From: Candidatus Heimdallarchaeota archaeon
GTDB lineage: Archaea; Asgardarchaeota; Heimdallarchaeia; Heimdallarchaeales; Kariarchaeaceae
Assembly (NCBI GenBank): GCA_030149205.1
Contig: JASBSB010000007.1
Location: 60,001-92,000, forward strand
Direction of reading: 5' to 3'
DNA length: 32,000 nt
Shown here: positions 7,794-31,146 of the stretch, in pieces
Layout: the number at the start of each line of letters is the position of its first letter
Numbering within the stretch: the first letter of the stretch is position 1
Program-made: the position numbers and the translations under genes
Notes under the pieces: model-generated
Database searches by the model: none
Told to the model about the DNA's origin: nothing
What the model saw: only the letters and a program-made list of their open reading frames with translations

Positions 7794-10700
7794 GTCTTTA
7801 CACCTTCCCAGAATCTTGGCTGAAACTGATTAATTTGATTGATTGAAAGGACACGAAATCCCTGTTTGAAATAGTGTTGCTCTATATACTCAAATACAGC
7901 ATTCAGTTGCTTTGCACTTTGAATCGTTCCAGATTGGAGATTTTCTAATTCAATCACATCATTGGTTTCAGAAATTTTTAACCCTAACATTATTTCCCCT
8001 CGATAAACTACTAAATGAGACATTCTTTCGAAATATACCTTGGTATGCTTTAATAGCTCGATAAACGAAGGAGATAAATTATCAACGAAAAGAATTTCTG
8101 GTAAAAGTGCAGCTCTTGATGAGTTCTCCAGAAGTGAAATGAGATCATTTTTAAGATAAAAAACCTCTTTGATAGGTTCTTGTAACAGTAGCAATGAAAG
8201 TTCCTTACTTTCCAGCATTTTACTTATCTGTAACAATATCAATGGTCTTGGAACAGAACCATAGAATATCCCAACTATCTCTGACATTGTGACCAATGAA
8301 TTCATAGATATAAAAGCTAAAATCCTCTCTTTTATCAATTCTGAAGTTATTTTATGCTGGCGTATTGAATGGTAGCTACGAAATTTTCCATCTGGGATAT
8401 ATGAATAGATCAACCGTCTTTTCGACAGAGTTCTAAGAATTTCACTAAGCAGTTCATCAGAAATTTTAGCTTGAGTTACCAAGGATGATTTTGTTAACCC
8501 TCCCTGTTCTCTTAACAGATTGAGAACCCTTTTCTCCTCTATTCCTAGATTCTCTTCCTTTGGTTTGAAATTCCAATCCCAATAAAACGGGTTGTAGTAT
8601 GTATCCTGAAGAAAGTAAAGTTCTTCCTCCTCTACAAACCTGTTCAATGTGTGAATAGTTGTAGCAGGAGTGGTTTCAAATTCTCTCAGTATATCTGCTG
8701 TTATGAATGAGGTGGAAGCATTCACAAAATCATTTAAAGTTTGATGCCCTTGATATCGCCCAAGAAGCTTTAATTCTATAATATCTTGTAGGTTAATCAC
8801 CTCTTTTCTGAAGTGCTTCGTGACTAGATAATCAACAAACAATTGAAATCCGTTTCTGATAAATATCTGAGTCAAGAGCTGAATTTTCTCCAGATTGGGG
8901 GCCTGCTTGTTAATCTCTTCAATCGATAGAATATTTGTCTGAAATGCAAGATATGTGATTCTTTTTAGTTCTTTTGCTAATGCGGTTATAAAGGGTTGAT
9001 CATAGAGAAAATCCTGTTTTAACTGGATGTTAATAATCTGTACATGATTAATTGACTGGGGAATCAGGTCTATCTGACCTATTATAGTGCCATCATAAAA
9101 AATGGAGAGAAATTTTTGCGCAGGATGTATCTTCTGATGAAACAGGCTGGAAACAGTTGTAAAAAATTGATCAGATTCATTGATTATCTTTAATTGGAGT
9201 GATGGAAGAGTCTCAAGCTTAAGATAATTATTGAATTCATCTAAATCATTTATATAATAGGTAATAGAACCATCAAGGATACTTATCTCAAAAATCCTCC
9301 GTTCAGAGAGGAGTTCGGATAGATAAGACTCTATCACACTATACTGCAATCTAGAAAGTTGGATAAGGCTATCTAATGTGAGGGGAGAGAACCACTGGAC
9401 GATTTTTTCTAAAAACATTTTTTGGTTTAATTTGATCGTCTCTTCGTCAGTATCTGTAATTTGTGGCAATGGATAATAGAATTCCTCATTCAAACTGTGA
9501 AGCAGACGATTTAATCCACTTTTTCCGATGTATAACTGACTTTCAAGAAGTGAGAGGGTCTCCTTCAGCTTTGTTCTTTCTATCCTTGTCTCTGAGACGA
9601 GTTTCTTCAGATTTGCCCCAGGAAACCTTTGTATTGTCTCTAGTACAAATTCCTCTGTATCTGTCAATTTAAGGTCAAATTCTCTAAATGTGTAGATTCC
9701 CAACACACAGTCTTTTTCATGAACAAACCAAGGTTTACCCTGAAGGAAGGGAACCAGATAAATTTCATTATTATGAATTTCTGCTATCAAATCCTCCACA
9801 TTAAAGTTCGTAATTCGACTAATTAACTGAAAAATGTCTCGAATTGGACTTCGTTCCAATACATATTCATTTACATCTCCGTCATATGATTTAAAGTATT
9901 TTTGTATCTTATAGTTATAAATATCAACATCCGATATAATGGTACTGGTTCGCTCTGATTTTTGAACTAGATTGTCTCTATCTGATCTTAACAGCAATTG
10001 ATTTTCCTCAGAAATGAAAGCTCCTGAGTAGATAACGAAATTTCTCTTTAAATAGTTAAGAGACCTGGAAAAGAGAGTTGATTCGACTTGTAACCTTTTG
10101 AAAAGTTCATCTCTTGTTATTGGACCGCTAAAAGTCAGAATTTGAATAATAAGTGATTCAATAGTCTGATTTGCGCTTAGTTTTGAATTGAATGTGTAGA
10201 TTTCCTTTAAGAGAGCAGGCTCAATAGGTTCATCCAGGAGGTTTCTTAGCTTTTTTAACTCCCTTGATTTTAAGGAGTACCCCAGCCTTAACTGAGGCTC
10301 AACAAAAATCAGATCTCCGTTGGTGTAAATTTTACTCTTAATTTCATCTGGCAATTCACTGAACAAAATATTAGCAAAATTCTCTAAATCAATCTGAAAA
10401 TTTTTCTTTGTACATGTCAACCCATTTGCCAAAATCATTCTTTCAATCCTTTGATAAAGTGTTAACTTTGAGTCATTGATCTTAGAACTGAAATAATCTC
10501 TTAAGAGTTGCTTATCAAATACACCACTCGTAACCCTTTTTGGTAGCAACTGCTTTATGACCTGTTTATGTAGTGATAGAAGAAGCTCTCTCCTGTCTTG
10601 CATCAAGACCACATCTGAGTTAGAGGCTAGTATTATCTCATGGGTCAATGGGGATGGGGTGTTGTTTCCAGACTTATCAACAACAGAAATATCTCCTGAT

Positions 10701-13159
10701 TTAGCTTTAAAATATATTTCAGATGCTTTGGGTGCATTGTAGGTGGAACTCAAAATCTCTCGCTCAGTCTCTTCAATGAGTGGAAAATTGTCAGGTAAGA
10801 ATTTAAGAAGTCTCTGTGCTGATCTTGATTGCTGTTCTGAGCTTAATTCATGTCTTGTTGATTTCTTCAAAACCAGTAGACCTCGTACTGCAACATGTCT
10901 AAACCTCAATTTAAACAATTCAGAGTTTCTAATTGCATGTTTAAGTTCATCAATAAGGTCTTCCTCTGTTTCAAAGAGAGAAAATATGGTTTCTCCAGAA
11001 ATATTTATTCCTGGGGGGAGAATCACACTGAAACCATTATCTATTGCAGTAAAACCAACATTAACACTGAATCTTTTGGACAGACCAAATGCGATAGCTT
11101 GAGAAAGAGGGGTGTTAACAGCCCTACCAAAGAGTGATAAGACGATCCAGTGTGTCACATCATTCCTATCAACGTACTTTTCAACGATCAGTCTCTGGAG
11201 GGTAGGTATATCCGATATCTTATGCTGTCTCTCAAGAAATGATGACAAAGAGCTGGTTGTTGCTTTATTTATCTGATACTGATCAGCCAGCCAGCTCCGT
11301 AGTTCCTCCTTAGATCCATTCTTCAGAAATTCTATTGCATGTGAGAAGATGTAACCCACCTCATTTGCAACCAGATCTGTCCGGCTTATTGCCTCACCCA
11401 CCCAAGAAGGAATGGTGGGGGGAATTCCTACTGCTTTTCTGACTATGATCTTGTTTCCGACTGTTCTTAGAAACTTATAGGGAGACCCTCCAAGAATAAA
11501 TACATCATTCGGATTAAGTTTCTCTACAAACCTCTCTGAGAGCACCCCAAGATGTGTCCGTTGCTCCTCAAGCACCACTTCCACAGACGTAACATCTGGA
11601 ATTGTTCCAATGTTTAGCATAAAGGTGGTTCTCGCGTACCTTCTCTTCCCAAGTTGGTTTGTCTCCTTATCCAACCAGATTCTCCCATATTTCCATTGCT
11701 CTGATTCTTCTGTTGGATTGTCCAAGGCAGTGATGACTTTGTAGAATTCCTCAAATCTAAGACCTTTGTATGGAAAGGCTTTGGTGATAAGGTTGTAGAG
11801 CTCATCCACATCCCAGTTTTTTTCTATTGTTAATCCAACAATCACCTGAGCCAGAACATCAAATGGTGCCTCTGGGATATCTATAGGATCTATTTTCCCC
11901 TGTAGTGCCAATTTATTGATACAGACGGCTTCTATCAAATCCGAAATGTGAGTTATAACAAACCTGCCCTTAGAGGTGGCCTCTAATGAGTGACCTGCCC
12001 TTCCAAACCTTTGTAATGCCTTGGCAACGGATTTTGGTGATCCCCACTGGATTGCCAGACTAATTGTCCCGACATCTATCCCCAGCTCCAAACTTGTGGA
12101 GGTTACAACAGCTTTTAGTTCACCATTTTTTAGTTTGTCCTCTACATCCAACCTCACATCACGATGCAGTGACCCATGATGTACCCCAATCATTGACTTA
12201 TACTTTTCAGGGAGCATCTCTTGTATCTTTGTGGAAAGTCGCTCTGCCCAATTTCTTGTGTTAGCAAAAACAATTGTCGTTTTATGGGTCACAATTGACT
12301 GAGAAATGAATTTTATCAACTGATGCTCAAGCTGGTCAAATCTCTGAGTTATCAGGTCTGAATCTGGTGTTACAACCTTGAGATCAAAAGATCGATGAAT
12401 AACCCCCTTTATAACAGAAACCATGGATCTTGGACCTGCAAGAAACTCAGCTATCTTTTCAACTGGTTCGACTGTTGCAGAGATTCCTATCTGGCAGAAT
12501 TCGTTTTTGGAGTAATACCTCAACCATTCAATCATTAGTGAGAGGAACGTCCCCCGTTTGTTGTCTGCTAATGCATGAATCTCATCGATTATCAGCCATT
12601 TTATGTTAAATAAGTGATGCTTAAACTTCTTTGTTGCAAGAGCAACACCAAGTGATTCAGGGGTTGTTATTAGAATGTGTGGGGGTTCCCTCAACATCTT
12701 TTGTTTAGCATAGGTTGTTGTGTCTCCCGTTCTCACCGCAATTCGAAGCTTTTCAATTGAATTTTTATCCTTATCTCTGGAGTTTTGTCTGATCTTAACA
12801 CCAAATTTTTCTTCCAAGGTTTTGTAAATTTCACCCACTGGATAATTGAGGTTTTTTTCTATATCATTGTTTAGTGCCTTAAGGGGAGAGACATAAATAG
12901 CATAAATGCGATTTTCAAGCCTTAACTCTAAAGACAGTTCAATCAGTTCATTTAATATCCCCATAAATGCTGCAAAGGTCTTTCCTGAACCTGTTGGTGA
13001 GATGATTAAGGTGTCATTTTCCTGTTGAATCTGTTCTAGACTGTGAAGTTGCATCTCGTTAAGTGAGGACAGATTCTCTTTGATCCATGATTCAACGGGG
13101 GCAGAAAGTTGAATCTTGGGAACAGATTCTGTTTTGACATAAGAAACCTCAACAGTCAA
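7790..13159 (-). CDS. lhr: Lhr-family SF2 helicase with a long (~930 aa) C-terminal extension
   Basis: SPTGSGKT, YVSPLKALNNDI, RTGDT, ILITTPESL, IIDEIH, GISAT, HHGSL, TSLELGIDVG, QRFGRAGH, PFDVLAQ, NIGTIPD, PSWVGE. TTG start. Confidence 0.92.
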   Translation of the reverse strand: MTVEVSYVKTESVPKIQLSAPVESWIKENLSSLNEMQLHSLEQIQQENDTLIISPTGSGKTFAAFMGILNELIELSLELRLENRIYAIYVSPLKALNNDIEKNLNYPVGEIYKTLEEKFGVKIRQNSRDKDKNSIEKLRIAVRTGDTTTYAKQKMLREPPHILITTPESLGVALATKKFKHHLFNIKWLIIDEIHALADNKRGTFLSLMIEWLRYYSKNEFCQIGISATVEPVEKIAEFLAGPRSMVSVIKGVIHRSFDLKVVTPDSDLITQRFDQLEHQLIKFISQSIVTHKTTIVFANTRNWAERLSTKIQEMLPEKYKSMIGVHHGSLHRDVRLDVEDKLKNGELKAVVTSTSLELGIDVGTISLAIQWGSPKSVAKALQRFGRAGHSLEATSKGRFVITHISDLIEAVCINKLALQGKIDPIDIPEAPFDVLAQVIVGLTIEKNWDVDELYNLITKAFPYKGLRFEEFYKVITALDNPTEESEQWKYGRIWLDKETNQLGKRRYARTTFMLNIGTIPDVTSVEVVLEEQRTHLGVLSERFVEKLNPNDVFILGGSPYKFLRTVGNKIIVRKAVGIPPTIPSWVGEAISRTDLVANEVGYIFSHAIEFLKNGSKEELRSWLADQYQINKATTSSLSSFLERQHKISDIPTLQRLIVEKYVDRNDVTHWIVLSLFGRAVNTPLSQAIAFGLSKRFSVNVGFTAIDNGFSVILPPGINISGETIFSLFETEEDLIDELKHAIRNSELFKLRFRHVAVRGLLVLKKSTRHELSSEQQSRSAQRLLKFLPDNFPLIEETEREILSSTYNAPKASEIYFKAKSGDISVVDKSGNNTPSPLTHEIILASNSDVVLMQDRRELLLSLHKQVIKQLLPKRVTSGVFDKQLLRDYFSSKINDSKLTLYQRIERMILANGLTCTKKNFQIDLENFANILFSELPDEIKSKIYTNGDLIFVEPQLRLGYSLKSRELKKLRNLLDEPIEPALLKEIYTFNSKLSANQTIESLIIQILTFSGPITRDELFKRLQVESTLFSRSLNYLKRNFVIYSGAFISEENQLLLRSDRDNLVQKSERTSTIISDVDIYNYKIQKYFKSYDGDVNEYVLERSPIRDIFQLISRITNFNVEDLIAEIHNNEIYLVPFLQGKPWFVHEKDCVLGIYTFREFDLKLTDTEEFVLETIQRFPGANLKKLVSETRIERTKLKETLSLLESQLYIGKSGLNRLLHSLNEEFYYPLPQITDTDEETIKLNQKMFLEKIVQWFSPLTLDSLIQLSRLQYSVIESYLSELLSERRIFEISILDGSITYYINDLDEFNNYLKLETLPSLQLKIINESDQFFTTVSSLFHQKIHPAQKFLSIFYDGTIIGQIDLIPQSINHVQIINIQLKQDFLYDQPFITALAKELKRITYLAFQTNILSIEEINKQAPNLEKIQLLTQIFIRNGFQLFVDYLVTKHFRKEVINLQDIIELKLLGRYQGHQTLNDFVNASTSFITADILREFETTPATTIHTLNRFVEEEELYFLQDTYYNPFYWDWNFKPKEENLGIEEKRVLNLLREQGGLTKSSLVTQAKISDELLSEILRTLSKRRLIYSYIPDGKFRSYHSIRQHKITSELIKERILAFISMNSLVTMSEIVGIFYGSVPRPLILLQISKMLESKELSLLLLQEPIKEVFYLKNDLISLLENSSRAALLPEILFVDNLSPSFIELLKHTKVYFERMSHLVVYRGEIMLGLKISETNDVIELENLQSGTIQSAKQLNAVFEYIEQHYFKQGFRVLSINQINQFQPRFWEGVKT

Positions 13160-13398: not shown

Positions 13399-13460
13399 AT
13401 TTAACCAATCGGTTGAATGAAAGGTTTAAATACTGAGAATAGTTTACCAATTGGTTAAAT
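13399..13460 (+). promoter_or_regulatory. Two imperfect palindromic operators flanking a TATA box upstream of arsR
   Basis: ATTTAACC-AATC-GGTTGAAT at 13399-13418 and AGTTTACC-AATT-GGTTAAAT at 13441-13460. TTTAAATA at 13425-13432 lies about 27 nt before ATG 13459. Confidence 0.75.
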
Positions 13461-13794
13461 GAGTCAACAACTCGATCTTTTGTTCTATTCACTTTCAGAC
13501 CAGACCAGAAGGGATATTTTGAGAAGGTTAACCTTGAAAGAGCTGACTGTGAGTCAGATAGCTAAACCTTACAAAATCTCTTTGGCTGCTGTGTCAAAAC
13601 ATCTCAAGGTTCTTGAGAAAGCAAAGCTGATAGGAAGAAGGAGAGATGGCAAAAATCACATTATTCATGCAGAGCCAAAAACCCTGATTAAGATTGATTC
13701 TTGGATTGAATTTTATAAGCAGTACTGGAATGAGTCCTTTGATCAACTTAACACTTATTTAACGACTGTAGGAGATACAAAGAATGAAACATGA
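13459..13794 (+). CDS. ArsR/SmtB-family transcriptional regulator
   Basis: LSDQTRRDILRRL, VSQIAKPYKISLAAVSKHLKVLEKAKLI, W...YKQYWNESFDQL, as in the SRPBCC-associated subfamily. Confidence 0.93.
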   Translation: MSQQLDLLFYSLSDQTRRDILRRLTLKELTVSQIAKPYKISLAAVSKHLKVLEKAKLIGRRRDGKNHIIHAEPKTLIKIDSWIEFYKQYWNESFDQLNTYLTTVGDTKNET

Positions 13795-18687: not shown

Positions 18688-19027
18688 GATAAAGTTGGAA
18701 GATCACCATCATTGTTAAAGACAACCAAACCAATATAGACCAACGGAAATTACAACCGGTTAAACCCTCATTACAAAGAGAATCATGATCGCATAAAGTT
18801 TATTTTCAACCTCTACAATCTAATATACATAAGAAATAAGACAGTTATTGTTATGCGAATTTTCATCCTGCTTAATGTGAAATATTGACTTAACATTAAA
18901 TAATTTTTATGTATTTTTTTAAAGAAAATATTCAAAGGATTAACCAAAAATCGAAGGGTATAAATGAAAAAAATAAAATGTAGGTTAAGGGGATTTTATA
19001 ATTTCATATTTTACGTGGAATAGTATA

Positions 19028-21265
19028 TTGGGTAATTATTTTTTTAACCCCAATAAAGAGGGTTCATGGGTTCTTTTATCTTTGGAGGAAGAATTATTTA
19101 ATGAACTTGGAAAAGAAATTAAACAAAATTTTGAAGATTTTCTTAAAGCTATAAAAGAACCAAAATTTCAGGAATCTTGTTATTATGACCACAAGTGCAA
19201 ATATAAGCTCTCTGATTTTACCGGCAAGGTTCAAAATCCAATTAACAACACTATAGCACTACACAAGTTTTATCTCAAACATGATAAAGACCTAATTAAA
19301 ACCAAAACCCCACCTTTTTTTGCCTTTTTATGTTTTTTTATCGTTCCAATGCTTCATGATGAGAAAAATTATTATAAACCCTTAAATCAGTTATTAAATT
19401 TAAACAACGAAGGTATGCCAAAAGGATTTGAAGAGATACCAAATGTATTCGTAACTTTAGAAGATTGGTCACTGCAAAATGAAGGGAAATTAGGGTTATT
19501 CTTAGCTAATTCTAATTTCATACATGAAAGATACATTAATGTTGGAACAATTTGGACTCAAAGTCTTTTACGACCTTCTGACAAAGAAATTCTCAAAATC
19601 ATTTTTTATGGATACCAAGGTATAAAAGGAAGAAATATTTCTAAACAAGAATTAAGATATCTGATTATTAACTCAAAACCTTTTCATCTACTTAGAAAAA
19701 AAATTAAGGATATCTTAAAAGATGACAATCCAAATAATAAAACAAAAAAAGCACTTCTACAAATAATACAAAATGAATACTCAGATTGGGATGGAAAAAT
19801 CGATGAGAAATTTATTTCATATATTGATAAAAGAGAATTAAATCTAGATGCCCGTGGTCATATCTCTTTGAAGTTTCAGGAGACAAAATTAATTTCTGTG
19901 AGATTAAGGTTTCAAATATACAGTGAGAATTTAAAAGGAAAAATAACATTCAATATAGAAAGAAATAAATTATTGATAAAGGTTAGAAATGATGATTGGA
20001 GTTCTCCAGCCTACACAGTTAATCAAGATGAGATGGAAGCAGAAATATTTGATGCAACAAAAATATTATTTGAAAATGTATATATAGATTCTGAAAAGTT
20101 AAAATCTGTATTTCATAGTAAAGATATATTATACTTTCAGCAAGGTGGATTCCATAATGGATTAAATAATGATGAATTTATACAAAATTCTCAACTTTCT
20201 GTTGATGAAATTAACATGGTAATTACAACTAAGAATAATAAACAATACTTATCTTGGAGTGAAAATCCAGAAAATTACAAAAATCAAAAAAAATTACAAC
20301 ACCCACAAAGTGGGAAATTTGATTTATTTGTTATTCAGGATCCAAAAGTTGATATTATAAGTTTAGAACCAATCGTGAATATAGACGATGTTTTAATAGA
20401 ATTTATTGATGGAATAAAAAAACCAAATACAAAAAAAAGTATCTATTTTTTTGATGTCCCTCCTACAATATTGATTAAACCAAAAGATAATTACAAAGTT
20501 TTTTTAGGTGGTACAATATGTTCGATTGATGTTGAGAATTTATGTGAGCATAAAATTTTAAAATTGAAAAATAATAGTCTAAATGAATACTCTGTACGAA
20601 TTAATAAACATATTAATCATTATTATGAGTCGCAGTTAGAAATTATTGTTAAAAAAGAAGATCAAATTTTGGCTCGCAAACAGATTAAATTTATTAAAAC
20701 CATAATGAAAATACCACACATCAGATTTAAAAGAGATTTATTTTTCAATCAAATTGAAAATGAAGATAAATTTGTGGATTTTTTCATTTATAGACTACGT
20801 TCTAAATTTCCTTTAGAATTTGGGATAAATGTAACTTTTATTGGTCTTCAACCAGGAGAAATTTGTAGATTTAATTTGAAGAAACCTGTGATTAACACGC
20901 ACAAAAAACAAAAAACGAAATATAAATTTAATAAATATCAAAAATATAAAAATTATAAAAGAACCTCAGATATCCAATTATACCAAGAGGAAAAGGCTAA
21001 ATTAGAATTAACTTCATGGAATCCAATTTGGGCTATTATTCATCAAATTAATGAAAAATTGGAGTTTATTCCCCTAAATACGAAAAAAAATCGAAATCAA
21101 ATCATACGAAATATAAATCAATTAAATGGAAATGTTCCACTGGGTTTGAATGGAGAGGAATGGAAAAAAATAATAATCAATTTTAAAGGAATGAAACCAA
21201 AATCAATTTCTGAAAAAATGTTATGGGATAAATTCTCAAATCAGGTTTTAACTTTATTCCAATAG
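19028..21265 (+). CDS. 745-aa hypothetical protein, Druantia accessory-like (DruH N-part or DruC/DruF-like)
   Basis: Long ORF in the island upstream of the DruE-like helicase. TTG start, but the frame is open from 18989 (…SYFTWNSILGNYFFNP). Ends in TAG in frame with the next ORF. Confidence 0.5.
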   Translation: MGNYFFNPNKEGSWVLLSLEEELFNELGKEIKQNFEDFLKAIKEPKFQESCYYDHKCKYKLSDFTGKVQNPINNTIALHKFYLKHDKDLIKTKTPPFFAFLCFFIVPMLHDEKNYYKPLNQLLNLNNEGMPKGFEEIPNVFVTLEDWSLQNEGKLGLFLANSNFIHERYINVGTIWTQSLLRPSDKEILKIIFYGYQGIKGRNISKQELRYLIINSKPFHLLRKKIKDILKDDNPNNKTKKALLQIIQNEYSDWDGKIDEKFISYIDKRELNLDARGHISLKFQETKLISVRLRFQIYSENLKGKITFNIERNKLLIKVRNDDWSSPAYTVNQDEMEAEIFDATKILFENVYIDSEKLKSVFHSKDILYFQQGGFHNGLNNDEFIQNSQLSVDEINMVITTKNNKQYLSWSENPENYKNQKKLQHPQSGKFDLFVIQDPKVDIISLEPIVNIDDVLIEFIDGIKKPNTKKSIYFFDVPPTILIKPKDNYKVFLGGTICSIDVENLCEHKILKLKNNSLNEYSVRINKHINHYYESQLEIIVKKEDQILARKQIKFIKTIMKIPHIRFKRDLFFNQIENEDKFVDFFIYRLRSKFPLEFGINVTFIGLQPGEICRFNLKKPVINTHKKQKTKYKFNKYQKYKNYKRTSDIQLYQEEKAKLELTSWNPIWAIIHQINEKLEFIPLNTKKNRNQIIRNINQLNGNVPLGLNGEEWKKIIINFKGMKPKSISEKMLWDKFSNQVLTLFQ

Positions 21266-21274
21266 GTGGTAAGA

Positions 21275-22270
21275 ATGAACAACATGCTTTTAAAACTTAT
21301 TAGTCATCATGGAGAACTAAGTATATCTAATAAATTTTATGATATATATTATTCATTATTAAAAAAAAGAGCTGAAGAAATTAATAATTTTGACCTTTTA
21401 GATGAAAATTATTTTAAATTTCATCGCAATCAAACTCTAGAATATCTTAGAGCATTATGTCATATAGATTTCAGTATTCCAGAAAATAAAATTGTAATAT
21501 TAAAACCAACACTTCATGAAATAAAAAAGGTTGCTCGTTTGCACACATTTTACATTAGTGGATCAATAGATGATGAACTGAAAAATGAATTAGATATTTT
21601 TGTACAAGAAAATAGAGATATCAAATATGAAAAAAGAATAAATAACAGAAATGATAATTTAGTTTTAATTCCAGATTCTATCTATCTTTTGACTCATGAC
21701 TTTGACAAAATTATTGATTTTTGTAAGTCGGATGAAAGATTTAATTTTTCTTTTCAAACTGGCTCAAACATGATCCAAAACTCTCCAAGGTTAGATATCT
21801 ATTTAAAATATCTAAATAAAAAGGGAGTAAGTTGGCAACCATTTAAAGATTTGAAAGGGTATAGTAAATATTATTTTGATAAAAACAATTTCAAATATCT
21901 AATAAAAAAGCAAGTTGCAAGAACAATGCTTGTAAAATATCAAAATCCAATAAATTTTCAAAATTATTTTTTTCTTGTTGAAAACAATCAGATGATAGAA
22001 GTGGATTATTATTGGGGAAAATACTTATATTTAAATAAAATTGGTGTTACCAGTTCAGTTATATATTATAACACCTATAAAAAGGAACTCAAAATTCCTC
22101 AATCATTAAAATTACCACCTTCAATTAAAATTGGATTGACTATGTTATCTGCAGAAATTCCAAAAATTAGTTTGATTAATAACATTCGATATGAAGTTTA
22201 CTATAATGTTCTCGAACCTATGGCATACGAAATATGTATAAGACTTGGACAAAGGTTAAGTCGCAAGTAA
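21275..22270 (+). CDS. ~331-aa hypothetical protein, Druantia accessory-like (DruH C-part or DruD-like)
   Basis: LEYLRALCHIDF...V.LKPTL and LKLPPSIKIGLTMLSAEIP...YYNVLEPMAYEICIRLGQ recall, from memory, proteins encoded beside DruE. SD-like AGGTGGT precedes ATG 21275. Confidence 0.5.
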   Translation: MNNMLLKLISHHGELSISNKFYDIYYSLLKKRAEEINNFDLLDENYFKFHRNQTLEYLRALCHIDFSIPENKIVILKPTLHEIKKVARLHTFYISGSIDDELKNELDIFVQENRDIKYEKRINNRNDNLVLIPDSIYLLTHDFDKIIDFCKSDERFNFSFQTGSNMIQNSPRLDIYLKYLNKKGVSWQPFKDLKGYSKYYFDKNNFKYLIKKQVARTMLVKYQNPINFQNYFFLVENNQMIEVDYYWGKYLYLNKIGVTSSVIYYNTYKKELKIPQSLKLPPSIKIGLTMLSAEIPKISLINNIRYEVYYNVLEPMAYEICIRLGQRLSRK

Positions 22271-23320
22271 AATTACAGTATAGAAACTTGCAATATACTG
22301 TCGTTGAATTTTGGTCTTCCTAATGTTGTAAATATAAAATTTTTTCCGAACATGTTTTTCTAAATCAATATTGTATGAGAATTTTCGAATTCCCCGAATT
22401 GAAAAATTAAAATTATTCTGTGTAAAGACAAGAGAAATCGTTCCATCTTGTGCACAAAAAATTTTTTCTAAAATACCAACTTGATCAAAAGTTTCTCGTT
22501 TATTTTCCCCAACAAATGCTAAAATATTGTCTCTATATGGAAAACATATTGACCTATATATACATCTCCTGCAAATTTCAACATCAGGAGAAGCTAATTC
22601 AAGCTGTAATTTCTTTGGTAAATTCTTGGTATCTTTCCCGAAATTTTTAATTTTTTCAGAAATTGGAATAAATTGATTTTTGAAATAAGTTAAATATCGA
22701 ATTACTTTAAGTTTTTCTAATTTTATAGGAATTCTTCTATTCTTATTATCGACTAGAATTAGATTTTGTGGCCATTTCTTATTTATTTCTGAGTATAAAT
22801 AAGCATAAATATGGAGTTGAAGGTTATATTTCTTCAAATATCTTATTTCTGACGGTATTTTCTTTTTAAAATCAATTATGGTTGTACCCGATTTTTTTTC
22901 AATAATTAAATCAGGAATGCCAACAACATTAAATATTTTAGATTTAAGTTTGATCTCAAAATAAGTCTGAATGCTCTCTGTACTTTTAAAGGATTTTTTA
23001 TTTTCTGATAATATGAACCTTAACTTTTCCTTTTCCACATAATAATTTGGTATGAATTTATTTAAGGGGAAAAAATTTTTTTCTGGCAAACCCCTTTTTA
23101 TATAATTATTCATTAACTCTGTTTCAATTTCACACCAATTATTATCAAAATCATTATTATCAATTAATCTATTTCTAATTTTATGTTGAATTTGACCTAA
23201 TAATATGTTGGGAGAATAGGGAATATCTCTCGAAATATTTAGGTAGTAAAAAATGAATTTTAGGCGACATTCAAAAAAAGTAAAAAGTATAGTAGTAGAG
23301 ATTTCCCTCAATTTATTCAT
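22256..23320 (-). CDS. PD-(D/E)XK nuclease, Cas4/AddB/RecB-like, with a probable 4Fe-4S staple
   Basis: GIPDLI, IIDFKK and QLHIYAYL. One N-terminal Cys (FECRLK) plus C-x2-C-x5-C (CRRCIYRSIC). LLGQIQH helix. Confidence 0.85.
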   Translation of the reverse strand: MNKLREISTTILFTFFECRLKFIFYYLNISRDIPYSPNILLGQIQHKIRNRLIDNNDFDNNWCEIETELMNNYIKRGLPEKNFFPLNKFIPNYYVEKEKLRFILSENKKSFKSTESIQTYFEIKLKSKIFNVVGIPDLIIEKKSGTTIIDFKKKIPSEIRYLKKYNLQLHIYAYLYSEINKKWPQNLILVDNKNRRIPIKLEKLKVIRYLTYFKNQFIPISEKIKNFGKDTKNLPKKLQLELASPDVEICRRCIYRSICFPYRDNILAFVGENKRETFDQVGILEKIFCAQDGTISLVFTQNNFNFSIRGIRKFSYNIDLEKHVRKKFYIYNIRKTKIQRQYIASFYTVILLAT

Positions 23321-23405
23321 ATTATTTTTTTATTTTATACTATTAACATCTGTTGTCCTAAATTGTTATTAATGTTAAAAAAATTGAAAAGATTACTGAT
23401 TTTTC

Positions 23406-26400
23406 GTGGATGACCCTATCCAAGTATTTAATGACATAAATAATAACATAATCCGCTACATTAGAACTGCTTTTGGAACAGATCATAAAAACATTGAAGA
23501 TGAAAGAGAATTTTTATTAAAGAACTCAAATTTATTTAGTCAAATTCCTTATATCGAAATTTTACCGGAATACTTGACGTCGGGCAAAAAGATTACGGAT
23601 TTAACAAGTCAAGACTTACCCCAATTATCTGTAAAGGAAGTAGAGCAATTCATAGAACTAGTTAAAATGGGACTTATTGGTGATTATGAGCTTTATAACC
23701 ATCAATTAGAAATGCTTAAAAGAAGCCTCAATGGTCAAAATTGTATAATAACCTCTGGTACAGGGTCTGGAAAAACAGAAGCTTTTCTTTTGCCTTTGTT
23801 TGCAAGTTTGGTGAAAGAGTTTAAAAATTGGACTTCACCAACTCCAATAAATAAAAGAAACAATGATTGGTGGTCAAATTCTACATGGAAATCAGAACAT
23901 TTTACAAAAGGAAAGCAACCTCGAATTAAAGAGAGTTATTTCGTAAAACAGAGAGGGCATGAAACTAGGAAATCGGGTATTAGAGCTTTGCTACTTTACC
24001 CAATGAATGCACTAATTGAAGATCAATTAACAAGATTAAGAAGGTCACTTGATACAGAAAGCATTAGACAATGGTTTACTGAAAATTGTGAAAATAACTT
24101 TATTTACTTTGGTAGATACAACGGTAGTACTCCAGTATCGGGAACAGAATTAAATCAAAAAGGAAATCCAAATCGTTCAAAAATAACAGATCTTGAGAGT
24201 AAAATGAGAGAAATGGAATCAACCTTTGAGGCTGCAATAAGAGAAGAGCAATTGAATAATAAAGAAGGGGAAATTAGATATTTTTTTCAAAATCCGTTTG
24301 GTTCAGAAATGCGCTCTAGGTGGGATATGCAGTCAAACCCCCCAGACATCCTTATAACAAATTATTCAATGTTAGGAATAATGATGATGAGAGAGGAAGA
24401 AGATCAAATTTTTTCATTAACAAAAGAATGGTTGGAAGAAGACCAAAATAACATATTTCACCTTATAATTGATGAACTGCACCTTTTTAGAGGGACTCAA
24501 GGGGCTGAGGTATCATATCTTCTTAAATTATTTTTATCAAGGATTGGTCTTCATCCAGGTCATAATCAGTTGAGAGTTTTAGCTTCTAGTGCTTCCCTTT
24601 CAGCTGAAGATGAAAAAAGTTTTGAATTTATAGAAGCTTTCTTTGGAATGAAAAGAGGGAATTTTAGCTTAATTTCTGGGGATTTAAAAATCCCTGATTC
24701 TAAAAACATCTTGAAGTTAAACAAAGGTGATCTTGACCTAATAGTTGACAATTTATCGAGCTTGTCCGGGAATAGTTTGGTTGAACATTTTCAAAATCGT
24801 TTTACAAGAAATTCTTTGCTTCAATTTTCAAATTTATTAAAGTCAAACTTTTTGGATACTAATGAGAAGCGATATATAACTATTTCCATTTTAGAACTTG
24901 CAAAAAGGATATATCCAAATGTTGAAGACAAAAATACTTTACTTAATGAGATAGGAAAGTTATTAAGGTTAAGGGGTGCTTTCTCAAACAATAAACTACT
25001 TCCTAGTTTTAGAATACACCTACTCTATAGAACAATTAAAGGATTTTGGGGTAGTGTAAAACCAGATCTTCTAGCTAATCCCAAAAATTCGGTTTTTCTA
25101 GAACCACAGGTTTTTGATTCAAATCTAAATAAAGTAGCTGAATTATTATATTGTGAGCAATGTGGGGCAATTTTTTATGGTGGCTTTAGATTTCAAACAA
25201 AAAGTTCCACTGAGTTAATATTGACAGATTATAATTTTAGTAGATTACCCGATAGAACTCCAAATTTTGAATTTTACCGTAGAAGTTTTTACGAATATAT
25301 TGTATTTTACCCAAATTTCAATAATGAAAATATACAAGAAGAAAATTGGAGTGTATCTCCCAAGTTAAAAACAGGTCAAAATATCGAAAACCTTACTGAT
25401 AAGCGTACTGGACATTGGAAAAAGGCCAAAATAAATAGATTTACTGGAGAAATTAAAATTGGAAATGAAGATGAAATAGACTGGATAAATGGATTCATAT
25501 ACTCTTTAAGTTCAGATAATAAATATTCTATTTCACCAGAACTACACAGGTATAGGGCTGCACCAAATATTTGTATTTCATGTGGTGTGGACTACCGGAA
25601 GAGAAAATTAGATTCTCCTATTAGAGCATTTAGGACTGGTCTTTCTAAACTTTCTCAACTATTTATAAAAGAACTTTTTATGCAATTACCGGAGAATCAA
25701 GTTAAAAAAACAGTTATTTTTTCTGATAGTAGAGAGGATGCTGCGACTATTTCTAATGGTATTGAACGTTCTCACTATCAAGAATTAATAAGAGATTTAT
25801 TACTTTCTCTGTCCGAAATAATTTTAGACGGGCAATTAGCTTTTATTGAATTTTATAATGATTTAGAAGGTGAAAAATTAGAAGACTTAATTTTATTAAT
25901 TGCACAATATGAGTTTCAAAAAGGACTAAAAATTTTTCTAGAAAAATATGAAGGAAATAAAGTTGAGCGAATCAAAAAAATTAACGAGGCATATCCAAAA
26001 ATCTTAGAGACGATTTTCAATTTACAAGAGGAGATTAATACAGATTTGACTGAAATTACCTCAGAAGCAAAAAGAAAATTAAGAAAGAAGAAAATCAATG
26101 AAACACAAGAAATTTATGATATGATTAAATTAAAGATTGAAAACAGGATATTATCAATTGTTGATTTTTTGTCATTTGAGAATAATAACGGATATTTGAT
26201 TAAAAAATTACTTGAGTTGGGGATCAACCCTGGTGGACCTGATATCTCGCTAAAATATACAATTGATGGTCAAATCTGGACAAAAATTTATGATTTTGAA
26301 AATTTAACCACAAAAAAAGTTCTAAATGTTGAACTAAATCAATTAAAGGATAAAATAACTAAAAAATTACAATCAAATATTCTTTCAATATTATTTAGAA

Positions 26401-29183
26401 GGTTATATTTTGGTTTTGAAAGTACTGGATTAGGTTATGTCACATTTGACTTTACAAATAAAATCCTAATTGAAAAGTTAGAATTTTATAAACTGAAGGG
26501 GGTAGGGAAAAACCAAATAATTAATCTCTTTTCCTCAATTATTCGAATTATTGGATCACATTACAGATATGAACCAAACGATTGGGAAAATAATACTGTA
26601 GGTTGGGTGAAGTATACAGAAATTACGCAAAGTTGGTTCCGTCCATACCTCAAAAAAATTGCAAAAAATTGGAATATTAATTTAAATTTACTCTTACAGT
26701 TCATTTTATCCGGATTAAATAAAATTGGTCACAAACAAGGGATATTAAACATAGAATATTTGGATCTTCGTATTGCAGAAGAACATGAAAAAGTATACAT
26801 ATGTGAAAATTGTAGAACAATTCACCTTCATGACTCAAATTTTTGTTGTACCTTTTGTTTTGAGTCAATCAAAGAATCTGATCAAACTGTATTAGATATA
26901 AGATCCAAAAACTATCTTATTCGAAGTGGAATAGGTAATTCAAATATATTCAGGTTACATAGTGAAGAGTTAACAGGACAAACTGATAATCAATTGGAAC
27001 GTCAAAGAAAGTTTAGAGATGTTTTCGTTAATTCAGATGAAATAAGGCAAGTTGAAACTATAGATTTATTATCTGTCACAACAACTATGGAGGTGGGAGT
27101 TGATATTGGTGACTTACAGACAGTCATTATGGCAAATATGCCACCAATGAGATTTAATTATCAACAGAGAGTAGGAAGGGCTGGTAGAAGAGGTCAACCA
27201 TTTTCCTATGCACTAACTATCGCAAGAGACCGTCCTCACGATGAATATTATTTTACAAACCCTCATAGCTTAACAAATGATATTCCTCCAACCCCATTTC
27301 TTACTGCAGAGAACGAACAAATTCAAATAAGACTTATTACAAAAGAAGTACTAAGACGCGCATTTAAGAATGCAGGTGTCACTACTCATGACTCTCCGAA
27401 TAATGATACTCATGGTCAATTTGGAGAGATTAAAGATTGGGAACACTCAAAAGAGTTAGTAGTTTCATGGCTCCAAAATCAAAATAATGAAATTAAAAAG
27501 ATTATAGATGTTATTGTTAAAAATGGAAAATTAGAAAACAAAATTGTTGAAGATTACCTATCATATATTCAAAATAATTTACCTGAAAAAATAGACAATA
27601 TAATATCTGATGAAACCTACTCTGGATCGGGACTGGCTGAAAAATTAGCTGAAGCTGGTATTTTACCAATGTTTGGAATGCCATCTCGTTTAAGAGATTT
27701 GTTTCATGGAAAAGATGATGATAAAAGGATTGTAAAATCTATTCAAAGAGATCAATCTATAGCAATTTCTGAATTTGCACCTAATTCTCAAAAGACAAAG
27801 GATAAAGGAATTTTAACTGCAATTGGATTCACAAATGATTTATATTATGATTATTCAGGGGTTAAACCAAGAAATTCGGGAAATCCAATTGCTAATAAAA
27901 GGCAGATGGTCTCTTGTACAAAATGTGGATATTTTAACATGAAACTTTTAAATGAAGCCACTGAATTAAACTGTCCGAGATGTTTTGAATCTAGGGAAAA
28001 TGGTTACTTCATACTTCAGGTAGGAAGTCCCATTGCCTATAGAACAAATTTTCAAAATCCGGATGATGCAGCTAACGATTATATTGTAAGATCTAGCTCT
28101 TCTCAATTACAAGTACAGGACACAGAGAATCCAGGAGAAAAATTTGTACGTTGTAACATTACTTTTAATAACATGGATCCAGTATGGAAAGTGAATTCAA
28201 ATAATAATTTAGGGTTTAAAGGGGGCATAATTTCAACATTTGGAAAAATAAGAGGATTTAACTTAGACAATCAATGGATTTTAGAAGATTACATGCAAGG
28301 GATCGTAAGAAATGATGATAAAAAATCAGTCGAATTTGAAAATATAGGTTTATATGCACAACAGGTTACAGGAGTTCTTAGATTCAAACCTAGTCAAATA
28401 ATTGAAGGGATTAAATATGATATATGGAATTCTGAAGATTTAGAAATGGGGATTGTTGCTGCGGTTTATTCATCTGCATATTTATTAAAGCGTTTTCTAT
28501 CGAATCATTTAGACATTGATCCAAATGAAATTAATGTCCCAAAAATTCGAAGAGTTAAGTTAAATAACAATTTTGTCACTGAAGCTGCACTTAGTGATGC
28601 GCTTGAGAATGGATCAGGGTTTACAGAATATCTAAAGTCAAGATGGGTTGAGTTGATTGATAATCTACTTAACTCAGACGAAGGATTTGGGGGGTTTATT
28701 AGATCAGATGCCCACCAAGCATGTATGAATGCATGTTACAGGTGTTTAAAATCTTATAGGAATATGAGTTTTCATTCCATTTTTGATTGGCGTCTGGGAT
28801 TGACCTATTTAAAACTACTAATGGAAAAAAGTTACAACTGCGGTTTAGATGGAGATTTCACATCTGTTGAATTAAAAAATTGGTTTGAGTTCGTTCAATC
28901 ATCATTGAAAAATTTTGTAAAAAGATTTAAGCACAAAAACTTTAAAATAACTCAAATAGAATCCATTCCGGCCCTATCTTTGAAACATGAAACTAAAAAT
29001 AAGATAATTTTAATAACTCATCCGTTTTGGGATAACAAAAACCCTTATGGAATCCTAGCTAAAGCAATAGCTCGAGTTCAAGAACATGAATTAATCTTTA
29101 TCAATTCGTTTGATCTGAGCAGAAGACCAACGTGGTGTTATCAAAATATTTTTTCTGAGAATTTAGATTGGTTTCCAGAATAA
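23406..29183 (+). CDS. 1925-aa DEAD/DEAH SF2 helicase with C-terminal DUF1998, DruE-like
   Basis: YNHQ, TSGTGSGKTEAF, LYPMNALIEDQ, PPDILITNYSML, IIDELH, SSAS, IFSDSRE, TTTMEVGVDIG, QQRVGRAGRR. DUF1998-type D.LENGSGF and C-x3-CYRCLKSYRN...FDWRLG. GTG start. Confidence 0.9.
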   Translation: MDDPIQVFNDINNNIIRYIRTAFGTDHKNIEDEREFLLKNSNLFSQIPYIEILPEYLTSGKKITDLTSQDLPQLSVKEVEQFIELVKMGLIGDYELYNHQLEMLKRSLNGQNCIITSGTGSGKTEAFLLPLFASLVKEFKNWTSPTPINKRNNDWWSNSTWKSEHFTKGKQPRIKESYFVKQRGHETRKSGIRALLLYPMNALIEDQLTRLRRSLDTESIRQWFTENCENNFIYFGRYNGSTPVSGTELNQKGNPNRSKITDLESKMREMESTFEAAIREEQLNNKEGEIRYFFQNPFGSEMRSRWDMQSNPPDILITNYSMLGIMMMREEEDQIFSLTKEWLEEDQNNIFHLIIDELHLFRGTQGAEVSYLLKLFLSRIGLHPGHNQLRVLASSASLSAEDEKSFEFIEAFFGMKRGNFSLISGDLKIPDSKNILKLNKGDLDLIVDNLSSLSGNSLVEHFQNRFTRNSLLQFSNLLKSNFLDTNEKRYITISILELAKRIYPNVEDKNTLLNEIGKLLRLRGAFSNNKLLPSFRIHLLYRTIKGFWGSVKPDLLANPKNSVFLEPQVFDSNLNKVAELLYCEQCGAIFYGGFRFQTKSSTELILTDYNFSRLPDRTPNFEFYRRSFYEYIVFYPNFNNENIQEENWSVSPKLKTGQNIENLTDKRTGHWKKAKINRFTGEIKIGNEDEIDWINGFIYSLSSDNKYSISPELHRYRAAPNICISCGVDYRKRKLDSPIRAFRTGLSKLSQLFIKELFMQLPENQVKKTVIFSDSREDAATISNGIERSHYQELIRDLLLSLSEIILDGQLAFIEFYNDLEGEKLEDLILLIAQYEFQKGLKIFLEKYEGNKVERIKKINEAYPKILETIFNLQEEINTDLTEITSEAKRKLRKKKINETQEIYDMIKLKIENRILSIVDFLSFENNNGYLIKKLLELGINPGGPDISLKYTIDGQIWTKIYDFENLTTKKVLNVELNQLKDKITKKLQSNILSILFRRLYFGFESTGLGYVTFDFTNKILIEKLEFYKLKGVGKNQIINLFSSIIRIIGSHYRYEPNDWENNTVGWVKYTEITQSWFRPYLKKIAKNWNINLNLLLQFILSGLNKIGHKQGILNIEYLDLRIAEEHEKVYICENCRTIHLHDSNFCCTFCFESIKESDQTVLDIRSKNYLIRSGIGNSNIFRLHSEELTGQTDNQLERQRKFRDVFVNSDEIRQVETIDLLSVTTTMEVGVDIGDLQTVIMANMPPMRFNYQQRVGRAGRRGQPFSYALTIARDRPHDEYYFTNPHSLTNDIPPTPFLTAENEQIQIRLITKEVLRRAFKNAGVTTHDSPNNDTHGQFGEIKDWEHSKELVVSWLQNQNNEIKKIIDVIVKNGKLENKIVEDYLSYIQNNLPEKIDNIISDETYSGSGLAEKLAEAGILPMFGMPSRLRDLFHGKDDDKRIVKSIQRDQSIAISEFAPNSQKTKDKGILTAIGFTNDLYYDYSGVKPRNSGNPIANKRQMVSCTKCGYFNMKLLNEATELNCPRCFESRENGYFILQVGSPIAYRTNFQNPDDAANDYIVRSSSSQLQVQDTENPGEKFVRCNITFNNMDPVWKVNSNNNLGFKGGIISTFGKIRGFNLDNQWILEDYMQGIVRNDDKKSVEFENIGLYAQQVTGVLRFKPSQIIEGIKYDIWNSEDLEMGIVAAVYSSAYLLKRFLSNHLDIDPNEINVPKIRRVKLNNNFVTEAALSDALENGSGFTEYLKSRWVELIDNLLNSDEGFGGFIRSDAHQACMNACYRCLKSYRNMSFHSIFDWRLGLTYLKLLMEKSYNCGLDGDFTSVELKNWFEFVQSSLKNFVKRFKHKNFKITQIESIPALSLKHETKNKIILITHPFWDNKNPYGILAKAIARVQEHELIFINSFDLSRRPTWCYQNIFSENLDWFPE

Positions 29184-30916
29184 TCTTGTAGGTTATAATT
29201 TATAATTTTGAAAATTTTTCGATCTACTTCTTCCTTAGTGCTACATTGACAAATTAATATAGATTTATTTGATATTTTGTTAATTTCAGATGAAATATAA
29301 TTGTGTGAATCATTGTCTTTACATAATAGTAAATGAATTTCTAACAGAATTTTGTTTTTTTCATTTCTAACTGTTAGTTTTGGATTAGGTATTTTTTTGG
29401 TTGTAGATTTTAATTCAATAGATTTTAGTGTTAGATAGTCCTTCTTTTTAGAAGAAACTTTAACCTTTTTCCCAAAAATAGATTTAATAGTTTTTTCAAT
29501 TTCTTCTAGCTTAAACCATTCAATACATTTTTTAGAACAAAATCCATTTTTCTTAAATAATTCATCACCTAATAAATTTTTATATTCATCCTTGGTGATT
29601 ACTTTATCCAGATCATAATTATTGTTACAACCCTTACAGTTAAAATAGAATCTTCCTTCAATATCAAAAGGTAATATTAAGAATTGAAGAAAGTTATCAT
29701 CATTAAATTCTTCAATTTCTGAAAATAATTCATCAAAAGTTTGAATTAAGAAACTTTTAGATAAATCTTCTAATCTTTCGCCTTTTGTTCTATCATTTTT
29801 AATATCTTTACCCAAATTTAAAGATCCAAGATTATCACAGCTTGAAGTTAATTTTTCCCACCCAATAAATTCTTTGATTAGTTTTGCCAAACTGTTTGCA
29901 AGTGGTGGAGGAACAGCATTTCCAATAATCTTATAAAGAATCTTAAGAGTGAACCCATTTTCTGAATAAAGAGTCTCAAGCTTATCTATAATTTCACGAT
30001 CGAAACCTTGAATTGCTGCAGCTTCTTGCCATGATAGAGGTCTATTTTCATCTAATAATGGATATTTATACGAAAGAAACCATTCATAAGTAAATCTGTC
30101 ATTAATCAGGTTATCTTTCTTCATTTTGATTCCAGTTGGATGTAGTGATATAGAGCGCATGCTTGCAAGTATTGTATATGAAACGTCTTCATATCCTCTC
30201 TTCCGATTTCTAGAACGAAAGTGCCATGGTTGCGGGAATTCTAAAAATGGAAAATAATCGGATCCTGAACGAAACAATCTCCCTTCAAACTGTTTTAATT
30301 TGTCACCTATTTTGACTCCATTGTTAGCATACTTCATTAATTTGTGAAAAATTATTTCAATTGACAGATTTTTCCAATTAGGGTCTTTTTCTCGAACTTT
30401 TCGATGTATTCCAAAATAAAATAATCTTCTTCTTGCCTGCGATACCCCAAAATCAGAGGCATTTAAAATTAGTGGAAAAACATGATAAGACCCGTTGTTA
30501 ATAGAATTAAATTCATCTAGAATATAATCAAAAAAATAACCATCATAATTTGATTTTAATCCCAATACATTTTCTGCAACAAAAAAAAGTGGTTCAACTG
30601 TTTTAACAACTTGTTTAAAAAATAAAAATAACTTATTCCTTGGATCATTTTTTTCTCTCGAGCCAATCATACTAAAACCTTGACAAGGAAATCCACCAAT
30701 TACAATATTGGCCCTTGGTAATAAAGATAAATTTAAGTCTTCAATAGGGATTATTCCAATGCTTTCATTATCACGATAATTATGAATAGCTTGATATATT
30801 TTGTAAATTTCAGGTACTTTCTCATTTGCAAACACAATTTTAAACCCTTCTTTTGTAAATCCAAGATCAAGTCCTCCTATACCGCTAAATAACGAAATCA
30901 CATTTGGAGCTACCAT
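29141..30916 (-). CDS. DNA (cytosine-5) methyltransferase fused to a ~240-aa C-terminal domain
   Basis: Motif I LFSGIGG, IV GGFPCQGFS, VI ENVLGL, VIII QARRR, IX RPLSWQEAAAIQGF and X IGNAVPP, all within about aa 1-350. Confidence 0.95.
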   Translation of the reverse strand: MVAPNVISLFSGIGGLDLGFTKEGFKIVFANEKVPEIYKIYQAIHNYRDNESIGIIPIEDLNLSLLPRANIVIGGFPCQGFSMIGSREKNDPRNKLFLFFKQVVKTVEPLFFVAENVLGLKSNYDGYFFDYILDEFNSINNGSYHVFPLILNASDFGVSQARRRLFYFGIHRKVREKDPNWKNLSIEIIFHKLMKYANNGVKIGDKLKQFEGRLFRSGSDYFPFLEFPQPWHFRSRNRKRGYEDVSYTILASMRSISLHPTGIKMKKDNLINDRFTYEWFLSYKYPLLDENRPLSWQEAAAIQGFDREIIDKLETLYSENGFTLKILYKIIGNAVPPPLANSLAKLIKEFIGWEKLTSSCDNLGSLNLGKDIKNDRTKGERLEDLSKSFLIQTFDELFSEIEEFNDDNFLQFLILPFDIEGRFYFNCKGCNNNYDLDKVITKDEYKNLLGDELFKKNGFCSKKCIEWFKLEEIEKTIKSIFGKKVKVSSKKKDYLTLKSIELKSTTKKIPNPKLTVRNEKNKILLEIHLLLCKDNDSHNYISSEINKISNKSILICQCSTKEEVDRKIFKIINYNLQDYSGNQSKFSEKIF

Positions 30917-31146
30917 AAGAAATATTAAAATTCAGGTAAATTAACTTTTGGCCATTGAATAAATCAAATTGTAAGCTTTTTTTATTATTATAATATGTAC
31001 AAAATATATTCATTCTCATTTTTTTAGGGCTGTTTATTCAAACGTTTAATTTATCATATAATAGAAAAATAAATAGAATGCAGTGATTACTCTTAAATGA
31101 TTTTTAGGGTACAACCCAATTTAAAAGAGTTGTATTTTTCTTAAGA

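Follow-up and report, generated by a model that had tools for sequence, protein, structure and literature searches.

A probable horizontally acquired Druantia type II/IV defence locus in the genome of an Asgard-type archaeon

Gene content of the AT-rich block

We analysed a 32,000-nt stretch of an archaeal genome (the window; positions 60,001–92,000 of the forward strand of contig JASBSB010000007.1, assembly GCA_030149205.1) that holds a locus of the Druantia family of defence systems. Coordinates below are window positions. Five intact and closely packed open reading frames (ORFs) were read at 19028–30916: druF, druL, druK, druE and a gene for a C5 cytosine DNA methylase. GC content was 0.244–0.326 in each 1-kb segment from 19001 to 31000, compared to 0.34–0.36 in the immediate flanks and up to 0.45 in the rest of the window. 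An earlier reading of the same DNA, made from its letters alone (hereafter, the sequence-only reading), had outlined this five-gene AT-rich block, and all ORFs lie where it placed them. The five proteins were searched with PADLOC models (E ≤ 0.01 for DruG) and Pfam. PADLOC models matched all five, most of them end to end: DruF4, DruL4, DruK, DruE2/DruE4 and DruM2. No DruH or DruG model matched any of them.

The host was identified as archaeal, as the sequence-only reading had supposed. The best small subunit ribosomal RNA model for the host genome was archaeal, and two adjacent Snf7/ESCRT-III genes, located 34 kb upstream of the locus on its 633-kb contig, scored above the Pfam cut-off (87.6 and 72.5 bits; G000:C8:44592-45720, approximately 15 kb before the window start), with a Sulfolobus control below it. 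The Snf7 pair points to an Asgard-type host.

The helicase gene, druE (23406..29183, + strand), encodes a giant YprA-family superfamily 2 helicase of 1925 aa with a DUF1998/MZB zinc module. The protein matched PADLOC DruE2 (PDLC00014) with 1665.8 bits over residues 1–1917 and DruE4 (PDLC00051) with 1601.8 bits over residues 2–1916. In Pfam, it was matched by DEAD, Helicase_C and, weakly, MZB/DUF1998, so the giant DUF1998 helicase of the sequence-only reading stood, with the reservation that its zinc module is faint at the Pfam level. Helicase motifs I, II and VI (GTGSGKT, DELH and QRVGRAGRRG) and CxxC clusters were intact in the translation. A total of 1551 full-length relatives were found. 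Identity to bacterial homologues was 36–40% end to end, with 40% for the best, and all named relatives were bacterial. A pattern search of genome contigs with DruE alone gave 11 matches, none of which was confirmed. Among structures, PDB 9wae_A ('Helicase', 1970 aa) matched DruE at E = 5e-199, together with six sister entries, and 9tu7_Y, a 2108-aa DEAD/DEAH helicase, at 1.6e-30.

The druF frame (18989..21265, + strand) is open from 18989 and encodes 745 aa when read from the TTG at 19028. DruF matched PADLOC DruF4 (PDLC00054; E = 1.1e-38, residues 3–618) and DruF2 (PDLC00021; 2e-31). An exhaustive search collected 125 representatives, the best of them, self excluded, at 29% identity, and DruF shares conserved columns with an alignment of 79 family members. 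The N-terminal motif of the homologues is M-x-Y-x-x-W-N-D-x-L-A-x-x-F-F-N. The window encodes I-S-Y-F-T-W-N-S-I-L-G-N-Y-F-F-N (ISYFTWNSILGNYFFN) in frame, upstream of TTG 19028, which is the first canonical start. No ATG, GTG or TTG occurs in the druF frame from the stop at 18986-88 up to this start; the codon aligned with the Met of the homologues is ATT 19001. ATT and ATA are possible rare start codons under translation table 11. Either a rare start codon is used here, or the start has been lost and the protein begins about nine conserved residues late.

The druL ORF (21266..22270, + strand; 334 aa) shares one frame with druF, as the sequence-only reading had observed for its two hypothetical ORFs, and is split from it by a single TAG. 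The probable druL start is ATG 21275 (331 aa), 9 nt past the druF TAG and preceded by AGGTGG. DruL matched PADLOC DruL4 (PDLC00056) at 1.2e-26 over residues 5–332 of 334 and aligned end to end with bacterial DruL at 19–23% identity, with 17 invariant columns. A word-index search with DruL alone recovered only DruL itself, and a four-sequence profile recovered 10 proteins. Pfam gave nothing significant for either the 745-aa or the 334-aa protein.

The folds of both accessory proteins were modelled with AlphaFold2 from family alignments. The DruF model (pLDDT 77.8) consisted of a helical N-terminal domain, beta-sandwich domains and an alpha/beta C-terminal domain. Foldseek gave no match to it at E ≤ 0.001, and no clear PDB match was found; VIA-align recovered only an Ig/FN3-like sandwich at residues 454–558 (Z 6.4), and the Atlas only 'hypothetical protein' clusters of DruF size. 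A Toprim domain in DruF was considered and set aside, as the one Pfam match (TOP6A/Spo11, E = 7e-4) was below the cut-off, did not occur in homologues and had no structural support. The DruL model (pLDDT 76.9) had an N-terminal winged helix and alpha/beta domains. Structural matches of the winged helix in VIA-align were at background level (Z ~7, root-mean-square deviation 2.2–2.7 Å, 67–78 residues), and Foldseek gave no clear match. A predicted-complex run of the DruF 265–745 fragment with DruL scored 0.00, which weighs neither for nor against binding.

DruF and DruL are joined in other lineages. A natural DruF–DruL fusion of 948 aa was found in one lineage, and eight DruF-family proteins of 900–1140 aa all carry a DruL4-like C-terminus (P0256, P0145, P0220, P0232, P0240, P0187, P0195 and P0248). 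P0256 was matched along its whole length by the models of the long type II DruF, PDLC00023 and PDLC00016, and by DruL4 at residues 770–1027. DruL, the protein that defines type IV, is therefore the C-terminal third of this long DruF become a separate gene, and DruF and DruL behave as one unit in evolution. Since the long type II DruF amounts to DruF and DruL fused, what separates types II and IV is for the most part the splitting of one gene. The sequence-only reading had seen a DruH-like accessory in the two ORFs. This was not borne out: the ORFs are DruF4 (1e-38) and DruL4 (1e-26), and the 745 and 334 aa read through the TAG would correspond to a fused DruF–DruL, not to DruH. Pyrrolysine read-through of the TAG is itself not favoured, because no PylS was found above the cut-off; separate F and L are the bacterial norm.

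The third gene, druK (22256..23320, − strand; 354 aa), encodes a Cas4/AddB-like 4Fe–4S PD-(D/E)XK nuclease and is inverted relative to bacterial loci. Its 3' end overlaps that of druL by 15 nt. On the other side, an AT-rich spacer of 85 bp (23321..23405), identified by reading the sequence, separates the divergent druK and druE starts and is probably a shared promoter region of the two genes. DruK matched Pfam PDDEXK_1 (E = 4.4e-16) and the PADLOC DruK models PDLC00059 (1.3e-12; labelled 'PD-(D/E)XK nuclease superfamily') and PDLC00060 (2.1e-11), with Cas4 models at 1e-7 to 1e-8. Residues C18, C250-x2-C253-x5-C259, D137, D150-x-K152 and Q168-xxx-Y172 were invariant in nine homologues. With all four Cys ligands and the catalytic motifs kept, DruK is a predicted Cas4/AddB-type Fe–S nuclease, and binding of the cluster is likewise predicted. 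Its sole sequence match in the PDB was a weak one to 4ic1 (E = 0.008); this aside, the PDB contained no relative of DruF, DruL or DruK by sequence. No cas genes or CRISPR array were found in the window. The standalone Fe–S PD-(D/E)XK nuclease of the sequence-only reading was confirmed at the sequence level by PDDEXK_1 and the invariant Cys and catalytic residues, but not as a novelty, since PADLOC DruK models exist.

The methylase gene (29141-30916, − strand; 591 aa) is convergent with druE and shares 43 nt with it at the 3' ends. Its GC content of 0.26–0.30 is like that of the AT-rich block and unlike that of the flanks. Residues 1–348 (29873..30916, − strand) form the C5 cytosine DNA methyltransferase domain, matched by PF00145 (7.7e-58, 196.9 bits over residues 5–348) and TIGR00675 dcm (1.4e-49). 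PADLOC DruM2 (PDLC00027) matched at 1.8e-62, compared to 1.7e-58 for a generic type II methyltransferase model. Motifs I, IV, VI, VIII and X (FSGIGG, PCQ, ENV, QARRR and GNAVPP) were intact. The C-terminal extension (residues 349–591; 29141..29872, − strand), already noticed in the sequence-only reading, adds approximately 240 residues and contains a zinc-finger-like motif at 29525–29638 (C427-x2-C430 ... C460-x3-C464). The extension had no Pfam match below E 0.3, no Atlas match and no plasmid match. An HhH-GPD or Vsr domain within it was rejected, as Pfam gave no match and it did not align to the methylase–glycosylase tail of a related bacterial locus (L013). The host genome had no Vsr match and contained one other C5 methylase.

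Assignment to Druantia types II and IV

Work from 2026 accepts four subtypes of Druantia and assigns 18% of 566 loci to type IV (10.64898/2026.05.13.724313). Type IV was described as DruE + DruF + DruL without DruM and DruG in 168 instances from 11 phyla, and it has already been recorded, rarely, in archaea (Methanofollis and Methanosarcina, Table S5; Payne et al. 2021, PMC8565338). By PADLOC, the whole DruE + DruF + DruL core is present and adjacent at the archaeal locus, and DruG is absent, in line with the type IV description; the DruM2-like methylase abutting druE departs from its "no DruM" clause. Type II is said to have been described by Doron and colleagues in 2018 as DruM + DruF + DruG + DruE. 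That set is incomplete here: DruM-like, DruF and DruE proteins are present, and DruG had no PADLOC match. The DruH partner of ~1100 aa that type III requires had no PADLOC match either.

We compared the locus with the neighbourhoods of related helicases in 12 distinct metagenome or genome loci and two cyanobacterial plasmids. These 14 loci surround the nearest relatives of this DruE and are thus a non-random sample; one of them (L018) is a near copy of another (L003), and the gene table of one plasmid was incomplete. All 13 readable loci contained F-L-E. A PDDEXK_1 gene of ~360 aa, corresponding to DruK, lay directly 3' of druE in 10 loci, and a C5 methylase lay within 3.5 kb in 11 of the 14. 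In five loci (L003, L018, L004/5, L006/7 and the P0126 locus), the genes followed the order F-L-E-K-M-Vsr on a single strand, with K and M overlapping and no restriction enzyme. Elsewhere, the methylase was convergent (L010 and L013), formed a fusion protein with an HhH-GPD glycosylase (L013 and the P0056 locus) or was accompanied by its own endonuclease (MvaI/BcnI in L010; NgoPII, upstream, in L002). DruF, DruL and DruK of the archaeal locus were 20–25% identical to their bacterial counterparts, compared to the 36–40% of DruE.

The recurrence of the nuclease and the methylase with this helicase clade means that the composition is not new. The sequence-only reading had named their never co-occurring with the clade elsewhere as an outcome that would speak against it, and the sample shows the opposite, with K in 10 loci and M in 11 of 14. 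As a C5 methylase accompanies most related bacterial loci, the "no DruM" clause of type IV appears to be drawn too narrowly and is no ground for excluding the locus. The proposal of a Druantia-family defence locus built on DruE was upheld. We consider it likely that the locus belongs to the antiviral Druantia type II/IV defence systems and was acquired horizontally, with an F-L-E core plus DruK and a C5 methylase alongside. It is a further, unusually divergent and rearranged archaeal example of an already catalogued system, not a new kind of system.

Foreign origin and alternative readings

The distribution of the genes was assessed in related archaea. Among 400 genomes of its phylum, this genome alone was matched by the DruL4 model, save for one marginal match at 7e-4, and no DruE orthologue was found in three same-genus genomes (82–89% complete). 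Low GC content, named relatives that are all bacterial and rarity in the phylum and genus together support horizontal acquisition. As for marks of integration, the window contained no tRNA, direct repeats flanking the locus were not convincing and none of the neighbouring genes was an integrase. In a comparison by DNA with the same-genus genomes, aimed at an empty site, the flanks were too diverged to align.

Past the window end lies a second low-GC (0.27–0.30) pair of genes (L014 3739-6494, approximately 33739–36494), in which a 347-aa protein without family match is convergent with a 482-aa N4/N6 DNA methylase matched by type II methyltransferase models at 3e-40. This pair is probably a separate restriction-modification system. 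It is located 2.8–5.6 kb downstream of the C5 methylase, and two metabolic genes (sarcosine-oxidase-like and short-chain dehydrogenase/reductase) lie between it and the Druantia locus. With this second modification pair, the region behaves as a small defence island.

Other genes in the surroundings were also inspected. A giant Lhr-type helicase of 1789 aa (window 5514–13159, − strand) has DEAD, Helicase_C, WH_Lhr and DEAD_assoc domains and ~930 extra residues, and its gene shows translational coupling to that of a 759-aa protein with winged-helix matches; PADLOC matched the helicase only partially, with DpdJ/BrxH-like models over the Lhr core. Its GC content is normal, so its role is probably in housekeeping repair, not in defence. 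At window 13459–13794 lies a small winged-helix regulator of the ArsR/SmtB type (NCBIfam 1e-19), which was matched by PADLOC Csa3/CARF helix-turn-helix models through that domain only, and no cas genes lie nearby. A same-genus genome encodes a 1755-aa helicase (G055:C3:90018-94628) that weakly matches the helicase core and DUF1998 region of DruE (59 bits) and is a different YprA-like defence helicase.

Several points weigh against the type II/IV reading of the locus and its proposed working. Published type IV is said to lack DruM (PMC8565338), yet a DruM-like methylase adjoins druE. The closest relative of this methylase, which shares its extension, was found in a sister genome without DruE or DruL, and the methylases near related loci are heterogeneous: they are 24–34% identical to the archaeal one, vary in orientation and sometimes have their own restriction enzyme. 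The conserved N-terminus of DruF has no canonical start codon ahead of it and the gene order is scrambled, so the cassette could be impaired. In the literature searched, no experiment on any type IV system was found, and every mechanistic step proposed below is an analogy.

The first two of these points bear on whether the methylase belongs to the system. It could instead be a mobile archaeal C5 methylase, an orphan or a remnant or partner of another restriction-modification system, that happens to lie next to an acquired F-L-K-E cassette, both being part of a small defence island; in that case, Druantia would work here without methylation-based self-marking. The closest relative is a 567-aa methylase in a same-genus genome (G053), 43–45% identical over ~480–500 residues (45% over residues 5–505). 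The match includes the zinc-finger part, PFD-x-x-G-x-FY-x-CKGCNN...CS-x-KC-x-EW. The gene (L032 74-1777, G053:C66) lies beside a glycosyltransferase, and the genome, which is 89% complete, had no DruL4 match and no DruE orthologue. Housekeeping orthologues of the two genomes are 82–84% identical, a contrast with the 43–45% of the methylases that suggests that the methylase family moves independently. Taken together with the lower identity of the bacterial Druantia-linked methylases, this places the extended methylase in a mobile family of this archaeal lineage, and the extended methylases look like a lineage-specific archaeal family. The absence of DruM from published type IV and the N4/N6 methylase of the second low-GC pair, which indicates that the region collects modification genes, favour a separate methylase as well. 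Against this stand the C5 methylase close by in 11 of 14 related loci and the five loci in which it overlaps druK within one operon that has no restriction enzyme. At the archaeal locus itself, the methylase overlaps the 3' end of druE by 43 nt, has no cognate endonuclease adjacent and resembles the island, not the flanks, in GC content. Moreover, given the incomplete G053 assembly and a contig end 73 bp from its methylase, a neighbour there could be unassembled. On balance, we regard a methylase outside the system as a serious possibility that is slightly on the improbable side. Two readings of the gene remain: a local methylase recruited to the imported cassette, or a mere neighbour. The varied methylases across the bacterial loci show that such swaps are common.

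The start-codon anomaly raises the question of whether the cassette still works. A decaying relic would agree with the missing ATG, GTG or TTG before the W-N motif of druF and the loss of ~9 conserved residues on starting at TTG 19028, with the inversion of druK and the methylase relative to bacterial operon order and with the strong divergence of F, L and K (20–25% identity). However, five frames stay open across 11.9 kb of DNA with 28% GC, where stops arise easily, all catalytic, Fe–S and helicase motifs checked are intact, and ATT or ATA may serve as a rare start under table 11. We therefore consider a relic improbable. The undescribed Druantia-like type of the sequence-only reading, in which a DruH-like accessory would occur together with a methylase and with a standalone nuclease, is very improbable: the type IV paper (PMC8565338) does not spell out the five-gene set with methylase and nuclease, the literature search found no paper naming DruK, and the gene order and extended methylase are unusual, but no DruH match exists, the ORFs in question are DruF4 and DruL4, DruK is already modelled in PADLOC, DruE + DruF + DruL is published type IV (PMC8565338), and the same five-gene content is common in bacteria, recurring across many phyla.

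Proposed working and comparison with known systems

Druantia type III is the only subtype with a worked-out mechanism, in which DruE is a helicase-nuclease acting at single-stranded–double-stranded DNA junctions together with the exonuclease DruH (2026 preprints 10.64898/2026.05.13.724313 and 10.64898/2026.05.12.724681). For types I and II, the Vsr-like domain of DruE is reported to be inactivated (PMC12458937). Both of these types include methyltransferase modules, and the DNA of the host is modified by type I (10.64898/2026.05.12.722862).

By analogy with these systems, the type II/IV member described here could work as follows. As an ATP-driven motor, DruE would load on free ends or single-stranded–double-stranded junctions of viral DNA that is entering the cell or being replicated, and would unwind this DNA. 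DruK would supply the cutting activity and, in the manner of AddB or Cas4, break down the strand released by unwinding; the DruE of this clade is reported with only an inactivated Vsr-like nuclease domain. DruF–DruL, treated as one unit because they are fused in other lineages, would license DruE in the role of sensor or regulator. Self-marking of host DNA may fall to the methylase, with roughly even chances that it does so at this locus. The methylation gating proposed in the sequence-only reading is plausible for the bacterial F-L-E-K-M-Vsr operons; at the archaeal locus it is conjectural, the nearest relative of the methylase being in a sister archaeon without any Druantia gene. A more far-reaching proposal is that F-L-E-K(-M-Vsr) represents a methylation-linked subtype bridging types II and IV, with DruL as the detached C-terminal part of the long type II DruF and DruK as the effector for a nuclease-dead DruE; in the archaeon, a native methylase would stand in place of the bacterial DruM and Vsr, and its zinc-finger extension would have taken over, for example, mismatch handling or docking to the system. 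We put this forward tentatively and think it rather unlikely in full.

The locus would represent a type IV cassette that crossed from bacteria into an Asgard-like archaeon intact, adding to the picture of defence gene movement between domains. Its divergent DruF, DruL and DruK sharpen the view of which residues are truly conserved. The comparison also indicates that this DruE clade is regularly accompanied by a Cas4-like nuclease and a C5 methylase, though the published definition includes neither. Both this result and the homology that links DruL to the long type II DruF, in the C-terminal third of the latter, should be useful for Druantia studies and leave the class itself unchanged.

We compared the nuclease and the locus with the known systems closest to them. 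DruK shares with the Cas4/AddB exonucleases the 1+3 cysteine staple and the D...D-x-K and Q-xxx-Y motifs. It differs from them in ~90 extra C-terminal residues that are conserved within DruK and, as regards Cas4, in being reported always beside DruE and never in an adaptation module.

With Druantia type III, the locus has in common a giant YprA-family DruE and a separate nuclease-type partner, that is, the logic of a helicase plus an exonuclease working at DNA ends or junctions. It lacks DruH, and DruE3 models extend no further than the helicase core in its DruE (288 bits). The DruE of type III has C-terminal phospholipase D-type (PLD) nuclease domains, whereas that of types I and II is reported with the inactivated Vsr-like domain.

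The likeness to type II is closer. DruE is matched best by DruE2 (1666 bits), DruF matches DruF2 (2e-31) and the methylase is matched best by DruM2. Moreover, the long type II DruF has a DruL-like C-terminus, and the F and L found here correspond to it. In contrast to type II, there is no DruG match, F and L are separate genes, and the Cas4-like nuclease falls outside the type II definition.

Compared to type IV, the locus carries a DruM-like methylase that the published class is said to lack, and a DruK, for which PADLOC's model library is the only source of the name. The bacterial order is F-L-E-K-M on one strand, whereas here K lies on the opposite strand between L and E, and M is convergent with E. 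Its accessory proteins have diverged to 20–25% identity with their bacterial counterparts. The core is the same: DruE, DruF and DruL are adjacent, and F and L are translationally coupled as in the bacterial loci.

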